13,714 bases of DNA. It comes from a virus (taxonomy: Duplodnaviria; Heunggongvirae; Uroviricota; Caudoviricetes). Where the stretch lies: the IMG/VR virus record IMGVR_UViG_2693429599_000004. One strand, 5' to 3'. Below, piece by piece: positions 5,515 to 5,901 of this stretch (the stretch's first letter is position 1; every line of letters begins with the position of its first letter). The notes beneath the pieces were generated by a model that saw only the letters and a program-made list of their open reading frames with translations, searched no databases and had not been told where the DNA came from. The position numbers and the translations under genes are program-made.

Positions 5515-5683
5515 ACACTCCCCCGGGAACCAGAAAGGATCTGAAAATGGCGTTTTCTAACAAAAACAGCCTTTGTCAGATCCTTTTATATTTTTAAAAT
5601 TCTATTGATAATCAATCAGTTAAAAAGAAGAAGAACGGATCTGATTTTTCCCTAAAAATTTTCATAAATAGCGAAAACCCGCG

Positions 5684-5695
5684 AGGTCGCCGCCC
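5684..5695. other. cosN cohesive-end site (lambda-type 12-nt overhang); cosB towards nu1, right-end sequence towards higher coordinates
   Basis: Plus strand AGGTCGCCGCCC is the reverse complement of lambda GGGCGGCGACCT. Flanks match lambda left end (CTCGCGGGTTTTCGCTATTTATGAAAATTTT) and right end (CGGAAAGGACCC, GATAATGATTATCATC). Confidence 0.85.
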
Positions 5696-5901
5696 CGTAA
5701 CCGGTCGGATCGCCGGAAAGGACCCACGAAATGATAATGATTATCATCTATATAAGGTTTATCACAACATGTGTGTACGCCATCAAACCACGAGAAATAA
5801 TCAATTATGACGCAGGTATCGTATTAATTGATCTGCGTCAAATTAACGTAAAAGCAACTTCAGATAATACAAATCAGCAACACTGAATATGGGGAAACAT
5901 T

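Follow-up and report, generated by a model that had tools for sequence, protein, structure and literature searches.

The stretch of DNA considered here, called the window below, is 13,714 nucleotides long and represents the entire draft contig CYFI01000043.1 of assembly GCA_001283785.1. Judged from Pfam matches and from the gene tables of related loci, its genes are all ordinary lambdoid late, lysis or tail DNA. The 12-base cohesive-end sequence cosN (GGGCGGCGACCT) has a single exact match in the window, at 5695..5684 on the minus strand, while chance would supply a given 12-mer about 0.002 times in 2 x 13.7 kb. Since cosN is on the minus strand, the prophage runs from right to left in window coordinates, and the base pairs (bp) of the site are counted here from cosN base 1, which is window position 5695. 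As a reference we used an apparently complete prophage of E. coli 266917_2 (L003), in which TerS (182 aa), TerL, portal, protease, capsid and tail genes are intact. The features on which the argument depends are the following.

3177..3677, minus strand: C-terminal 166 codons of the tail-tip protein J
3674..3847, minus strand: gpW remnant (57 aa), fused by a deletion to the end of J
3831..5417, minus strand: gpA (TerL) remnant, called at 528 aa and corresponding to lambda gpA 111-641
3973..4061, no strand: 89-bp stretch identical in two prophage remnants, where the window changes over from the trp-locus type on its right side to the potB-locus type on its left
5425..5514, minus strand: Nu1 (TerS) remnant, 26 native codons followed by FCC and a stop; the intact version in L003 has 182 aa
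5435..5436, no strand: Nu1-A deletion junction, the same in L017, L018 and L019
5532..5544, minus strand: cosB R1 (bp 152-164), exact 13-mer
5576..5588, plus strand: cosB R2 (bp 108-120), in the opposite orientation to R3 and R1, differing from the 13-mer at one position
5610..5622, plus strand: IHF site I1 (bp 74-86), AATCAATCAGTTA, exact to the consensus WATCAANNNNTTR, between R3 and R2
5631..5646, minus strand: cosB R3 (bp 50-65), AATCAGATCCGTTCTT, by homology the critical TerS-binding site
5684..5695, minus strand: cosN, exact match, with predicted nick sites flanking 5695 and 5684
5719..5725, minus strand: cosQ (GGGTCCT, bp -30 to -24), the packaging-termination subsite, identical to lambda and to L003
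5726..5950, minus strand: right-end DNA preceding cos, with homology to the right end of lambda (86% identity, query positions 3-341)

The whole lambda-family cos thus occupies window positions 5532-5725 on the minus strand (194 bp), and every sequence feature by which such a site is recognised is found in it: cosN with its flanking nick dinucleotides, cosQ, cosB, and a position just upstream of the TerS (Nu1) gene, the remnant of which begins with an ATG at +182 (window 5514), directly downstream of cos. The sequence from -7 to +41 around cosN is identical to lambda, and L003 has the same cos sequence as the window over -200 to +261 (100% identity). The original prediction, which described cosN and its left-end and right-end flanks as intact, is borne out by these matches, and a check of cosN and cosB for damaging changes found no subsite missing or wrongly spaced, and none that differs from its counterpart in full-length prophages. 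A search of positions 5300-6300 for RNA genes, promoters and terminators gave nothing above background.

The cosB segment can be read from a 13-mer (TCAGATCCKTTYT) with three matches, at 5644-5632 on the minus strand, at 5576-5588 on the plus strand, inverted and with one mismatch, and at 5544-5532 on the minus strand; three such matches were seen in none of 200 shuffles. They correspond to bp 52-64, 108-120 and 152-164 and agree with R3, R2 and R1 as annotated in the phage 21 record (50-65, 107-122 and 150-166), where I1 also has the same coordinates as here (74-86). The order R3-I1-R2-R1 fits the lambda layout as well (PMC9026076, PMC4669245), to within 1-2 bp and with R2 inverted in the same way, and in lambda too cos lies directly upstream of the TerS gene. 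R1 falls a few bases outside the 5550 boundary of the original prediction.

The similarity to lambda ends at the specificity determinants. The R-site core of the window is TCAGATCC, that is CAGATCC against CGTTTCC in lambda, and Nu1 starts at +182 against +191. R3 agrees with lambda R3 at 11 of 16 positions, differing at bp 51, 52, 54, 55 and 56, of which bp 56 is the specificity position; it agrees with phage 21 R3 also at 11 of 16, and the five differences include bp 56 (G in phage 21, A here) and bp 59 (G in phage 21, C here). The recognition helix of TerS differs in parallel.

Window class: R3 (bp 50-65) AATCAGATCCGTTCTT; TerS helix residues 17-24 RTITAWQS
Lambda: R3 (bp 50-65) AGGCGTTTCCGTTCTT; TerS helix residues 17-24 RTIQNWQE
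Phage 21 (OL657228): R3 (bp 50-65) AATCGTGTCGGTACTT; TerS helix residues 17-24 RTIERWQS

Phage 21 is the nearer of the relatives in having the same subsite coordinates, a serine at TerS residue 24 and a gp1 82% identical to the intact TerS of the window's class, whereas residues 20-21 are ER there and TA here. The differences between the classes hit R3 bp 56 and 59 and TerS residues 20 and 24, which were shown by Feiss and colleagues to be the determinants discriminating lambda from phage 21, each of which, in packaging, favours its own DNA over that of the other by more than 1000-fold (PMC4669245). At bp 56 the window has A, lambda T and phage 21 G. Lambda specificity goes with T:A at R3 bp 56, with the lambda bases at bp 58 and 59 and with Q20/E24 in TerS, while in the window class bp 54-56 read AGA, not GTT, and TerS has T20/S24; phage 21 specificity goes with G:C at bp 56, G at bp 59 and E20/S24, while here bp 56 is A, bp 59 is C and residue 20 is T. 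By its sequence this cosB is a third packaging-specificity class, neither lambda-type nor 21-type, and for that reason only a helper of the cognate class, with the TerS helix RTITAWQS, should use the site; cross-packaging by lambda or phage 21 terminase would not be expected. The comparison of the R-sites and the IHF site with lambda, by which the original prediction could be judged, therefore comes out in two parts: all subsites are present and correctly spaced, but the class of cosB is not that of lambda.

The class was found in 225 of the 5426 complete E. coli genomes, including a prophage of E2348/69 (L002). The phage record collection contained no window-type cosB, the best match being Gifsy-1 with 74% DNA identity. 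Among the species-representative genomes of GTDB an R3 20-mer had only one exact match, in a Chloroflexia MAG contig (L022, 2702-2721), which we dismissed, as about one match is expected by chance in 1.2e12 positions. We also rejected a reading of the 169-aa TerS class (L001, L007) as phage 21-type: phage 21 itself and the Sakai Figure S8 show it to be the class of Sp4/Sp14, and it is the TerS class of the window that is closer to phage 21 (82%), yet distinct from it.

As had been predicted, neither the terminase nor the head genes of the element itself have survived intact. Relative to L003, a 763-bp deletion with the junction 5435/5436 and a 2-bp microhomology fuses Nu1 codon 27 to gpA codon ~108, and the remaining gpA is without the N-terminal part of its ATPase domain, the Pfam ATPase match beginning at profile position 67 of 247. 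In a second deletion, whose ends meet at about 3688-3690, gpW is cut at codon ~51 and runs on into the final 166 codons of J, with the loss of all the head genes and most of the tail genes (B to most of J).

The architecture of the contig needs caution. The cos, the Nu1-A junction and the exact 528-aa gpA remnant recur in three other assemblies (L017, L018, L019), in all of which gpA is followed by gpW, here intact, and then by a portal fragment, a protease gene and tail-fibre genes; L017 and L018 then run into yciE-trpABC. In a sister genome, GCA_001283665.1, remnants at the trp locus and at the potB locus lie on separate contigs, and the potB remnant is cosN-deleted and has the order W'-J'-lom-stf-nleB-espK-potB. 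The window is of the trp type over 4062-13714 (1 mismatch) and of the potB type over 1-3972, the change falling within the 89-bp stretch that both remnants share. A homology search for the portal fragment of the trp remnant found another contig of the same genome, CYFI01000034.1 (L025, 42 kb), which starts at window-equivalent 4046, overlaps the window by 74 identical bases (its 1-74) and past the overlap carries trp-type SNPs, an intact W and the portal fragment. On this comparison the window contig crosses an assembly repeat node with two exits. The join at 3973-4061 is possibly a misjoin, in which case cos belongs to an effector-less remnant at the trp locus; it is also possible that, by conversion or recombination, the genome has two copies of the cos arm and that the assembler took one of the branches. 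On the right the contig ends inside a repeat, and a sister assembly is interrupted there as well.

Among the contigs recovered here, cos and the lysis genes are linked to the tail-fibre and effector genes only on that of the window. L012 (GCA_001285625.1) joins the same two arm types and stops short of cos: over the equivalent of window 3827-4283 it has the W'-J' arm with trp-type alleles at 4062, 4074 and 4157, and it ends at the next SNP (4284). Either recurrent gene conversion between the two remnants or a repeated mis-resolution of the same repeat would explain this hybrid, and the parental arrangement is seen in L009 and L010. It may be suggested from L012, and possibly from the window, that the two remnants recombine, so that the DNA around cos would be genetically active. 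Beyond the same cos and Nu1-A junction, L019 (GCA_001285345.1, 1-2550) has a different right arm with a TonB_C-domain gene and a 66-aa DUF3950 gene, which indicates that the region upstream of cos is exchanged between prophages.

As to cargo, the window has a single effector gene, nleB (92-685), which IS1 truncates to 197 of about 326 codons, window positions 1-96 being the terminal 96 bp of IS1 (the reverse complement of L004 4967-5062), and nleB is here a pseudogene. The picture of a single element in which cos stays together with tail-fibre, lysis and effector genes is not secure: its effector is truncated, and the linkage crosses an 89-bp repeat for which a contig with the alternative arm exists. 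Satellite-type genes were not found, either by Pfam on the reading frames from nleB to DUF3950 or in the rest of the window, which was named from the gene tables of related loci.

The question, then, is why the site is intact in a packaging-dead remnant. The identity to L003 is not confined to cos: window positions 5435-6949 (1515 bp, of which cos makes 194 bp) are 100% identical, so that about 1.2 kb of right-end DNA beside cos is conserved just as perfectly, and the adjacent block of the gpA remnant (A') differs at 7 of 1748 positions (0.4%). Neutral change at the rate of this block would leave all 194 bp of cos untouched with a probability of about 0.46. Because the flanks are equally unchanged and the remnant is too young, the intactness of cos carries no signal of selection. 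We infer that the site is intact through the recency of the deletions, not through maintenance, bearing in mind that perfect identity is also expected under purifying selection and that young remnants do not separate the two.

Relatives of the remnant point in the same direction. The gpW-J' junction protein was found on at least 20 contigs, some of which (L007, L011, L013, L014, L016) have a cos of the Sp4/Sp14 class with Nu1 and A intact, while in two sister remnants at the potB locus, L009 and L010, a deletion running from just past cosQ into gpA has removed cosN, cosB and Nu1 and left cosQ. This deletion (L009 1576-1601, L010 511-536) starts 4 bp before cosN and ends at gpA codon ~60, joining GATCCGACAGGTT to CCAGATCGCC. 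Since cosN has been lost there, cos is not protected in this family of remnants. On a larger scale, at least some stretch of this cos region, mostly cosQ-cosN, is matched in 4236 of the 5426 complete genomes. In K-12, Qin (L021, 3500-3700, between ynfO and nohA) has cosQ and cosN in exact form, and its cosB is of the lambda type, altered once in R3; beside this kept cos there are no large terminase or head genes. A stranded cos is the norm in E. coli.

The Nu1-A junction itself is rare. A 29-mer across it had no match in GTDB (one genome per species), none of the complete E. coli genomes spans it, and its absence from both gives no evidence of spread. The carriers with enough flanking sequence (L017, L018) are all at the same trp locus, which fits vertical descent. 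Of the identical copies in unrelated genomes of which the original prediction had spoken, none with this junction turned up in these collections.

Several known systems can be set beside this one. The closest is in O157 Sakai, where the lambdoid prophage Sp4, with nu1 disrupted by an IS and cos intact, is still packaged, which the authors credit to the terminase of the co-resident Sp14 with identical cos (Asadulghani et al. 2009, PMC2669165); the original prediction proposes just this mechanism, and with such a case on record a functional role of the site is possible. Sp4 and Sp14, unlike the window, are of the 169-aa TerS class, and Sp4 still possesses its large terminase along with most of the morphogenesis genes, undergoes excision and amplification, and has a known helper. 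Qin and DLP12 of K-12 are likewise packaging-dead, and besides lysis genes and ynfO/ylcI (DUF3950) they have kept cos and Nu1, the latter as a homologue or a fragment (PMC3945230); Qin has a lambda-type cosB and nohA as a complete ORF, against a third-class cosB and a Nu1 cut to 26 codons here. The cos-type PICIs (Fillol-Salom 2018/2019; Murialdo and Feiss 2022, PMC9026076) resemble the window in being chromosomal and terminase-less, with a lambda-like cosN and a need for the helper's terminase, but they are compact, possess their own int, regulator and replicon, and redirect the helper's TerS to a PICI-specific site by means of Rpp (PMC9026076). The window has a standard phage cosB and none of the PICI genes (no int, regulator, replicon or Rpp genes were found in it), and a PICI or satellite reading was rejected.

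From our analysis and the comparisons above, it is probable that the window holds a lambda-family cos of a non-lambda, non-21 class (cosQ-cosN-cosB, with R3-I1-R2-R1), intact in sequence and passively left in a young deletion remnant of a lambdoid prophage. It is an ordinary, recently stranded relic with published precedent, and there is no evidence of a new mobile element. The DNA of the site would still be a competent substrate if a cognate terminase, with the TerS helix RTITAWQS, came in trans: TerS would bind R3 together with R2 across the bend that IHF makes and TerL would nick cosN at 5695/5684. In the lambda family the complex then stays on the cosB end, docks on the prohead and moves the DNA from cosN through cosB, and termination requires a downstream cosQ-cosN (PMC4669245, PMC9026076). 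In the window, packaging would head leftward through the Nu1 remnant, A', W' and onward, would exit the prophage after about 6.5-8.5 kb and would enter host DNA; the lysis genes, lying upstream of cos, would be packaged only from a circular or concatemeric template. By the size rule of lambda, a complete, viable particle needs a second cos that points the same way as the first and lies about 38-51 kb downstream of it. Because a second cosQ-cosN is needed, the remnant would have to excise and multimerise, or to recombine into a helper.

Trans-packaging as a maintained lifestyle is unlikely. An element of that kind, in which a co-resident prophage of the same class packages the remnant as a unit and spreads its lysis, tail-fibre and effector cargo, could draw on the intact cos identical to that of full-length prophages, on the precedent of Sp4/Sp14 (PMC2669165) and on the presence of the cognate class in the 225 complete genomes mentioned above. 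The window, however, offers no satellite-type genes and only an IS1-truncated pseudogene as effector cargo, the link between cos and this effector may be an assembly join, the placeable copies of the Nu1-A junction are all at one locus and sister remnants exist without cosN, while the size, integrase and replication genes of such an element would lie beyond the 13.7-kb contig. A co-resident prophage with identical cosB and Nu1 5' end should also make the assembly branch, so that the unbroken contig across the Nu1-A junction probably speaks, if weakly, against such a helper. We consider a helper-dependent mobile element improbable. Of the original idea that a lambdoid helper could package the remnant in trans, the part concerning the site itself stands, since what is needed in cis is present and the precedent exists; the part concerning the helper fares less well, for the cosB class demands a cognate one, which is absent from the phage records, and with flanks equally conserved and cosN lost in sister remnants there is no sign that cos has been maintained.

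A different role of cos in defective prophages has been documented, that of a recombination hot spot which feeds genes to infecting phages (PMC3945230). Applied to the window, the cognate terminase of an infecting or induced phage would cut cos, the break would stimulate homologous recombination, and active phages would gain the adjacent DNA of the remnant, which would not itself travel as a whole. Recombinants of lambda with Dlp12 are about 100-fold commoner than those with Qin or Rac, 10 of 19 junctions lie beside cos, and R, Rz and nu1 of Dlp12 work in lambda (De Paepe et al. 2014, PMC3945230); in the present lineage the A gene near cos shows mosaic switches between two remnants, and the right arm differs among carriers of the same cos and junction (L019 against L017). 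In this precedent, however, lambda terminase cuts a cos of the lambda type, an active phage of the cognate class is not known, and the mosaic switches are 1.4-1.7 kb from cos and could be assembly artefacts, so that we regard a hot spot or gene reservoir as a rather unlikely account of the site. Far less probable still is packaging in situ, in which a helper's terminase would start at the unexcised cos and package the downstream chromosome on the trp or the potB side into transducing particles. The orientation is known, and a path from cos through A' to the prophage end in about 6.5-8.5 kb would reach host genes, namely yciE-trpABC (L017) or potB-potA-pepT (L009/L007). Particles with a single cohesive end are nevertheless defective, as in the classical docL observation on lambda, and the second (potB) remnant, presumably about 130 kb away by the E. 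coli K-12 map, is without cosN in the sister genome. The terminal cut of cos phages, moreover, requires a downstream cosQ-cosN (PMC4669245).

Returning to the stranded relic, which we prefer, we see it as a new instance of a known situation, with an uncharacterised cosB class and a doubtful contig architecture. The trans-packaging reading is plausible in cis and unsupported in trans, and it is not new, for trans-packaging of terminase-defective prophages has already been published (O157 Sp4/Sp14, PMC2669165). If a cognate helper exists, the stranded cos could let the DNA of a dead EPEC prophage be packaged or rescued by recombination, which would add to the traffic of virulence genes within the prophage pool already shown in O157. 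The main practical value of the analysis is that it flags an uncharacterised cosB/TerS specificity class; it also exposes a draft contig that joins two different prophage remnants across a repeat. One may go further and suggest, as a conjecture with small chances, that RTITAWQS together with TCAGATCC is a further natural lambda-like specificity (~4% of complete E. coli genomes, including EPEC E2348/69), by which stranded EPEC cos sites let cognate prophages move or recombine nleB-type effector-linked DNA between strains.

Some other features of the right half of the window deserve a record. Two prophage tRNA genes lie on the minus strand, at 13189-13265 and 13366-13441, an Arg-tct and a CAT-anticodon tRNA, the latter annotated as Ile in related genomes, and a match to the STnc100 sRNA family (132 bits) is found at 12303-12492, also on the minus strand. 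Between the tRNAs and the holin gene, the late region carries a gene for an IraM/PmrD-like anti-adapter (11942-12277, plus strand) and one for a SASA-family carbohydrate esterase with DUF1737 and DUF6645 domains (9828-11696, minus strand).
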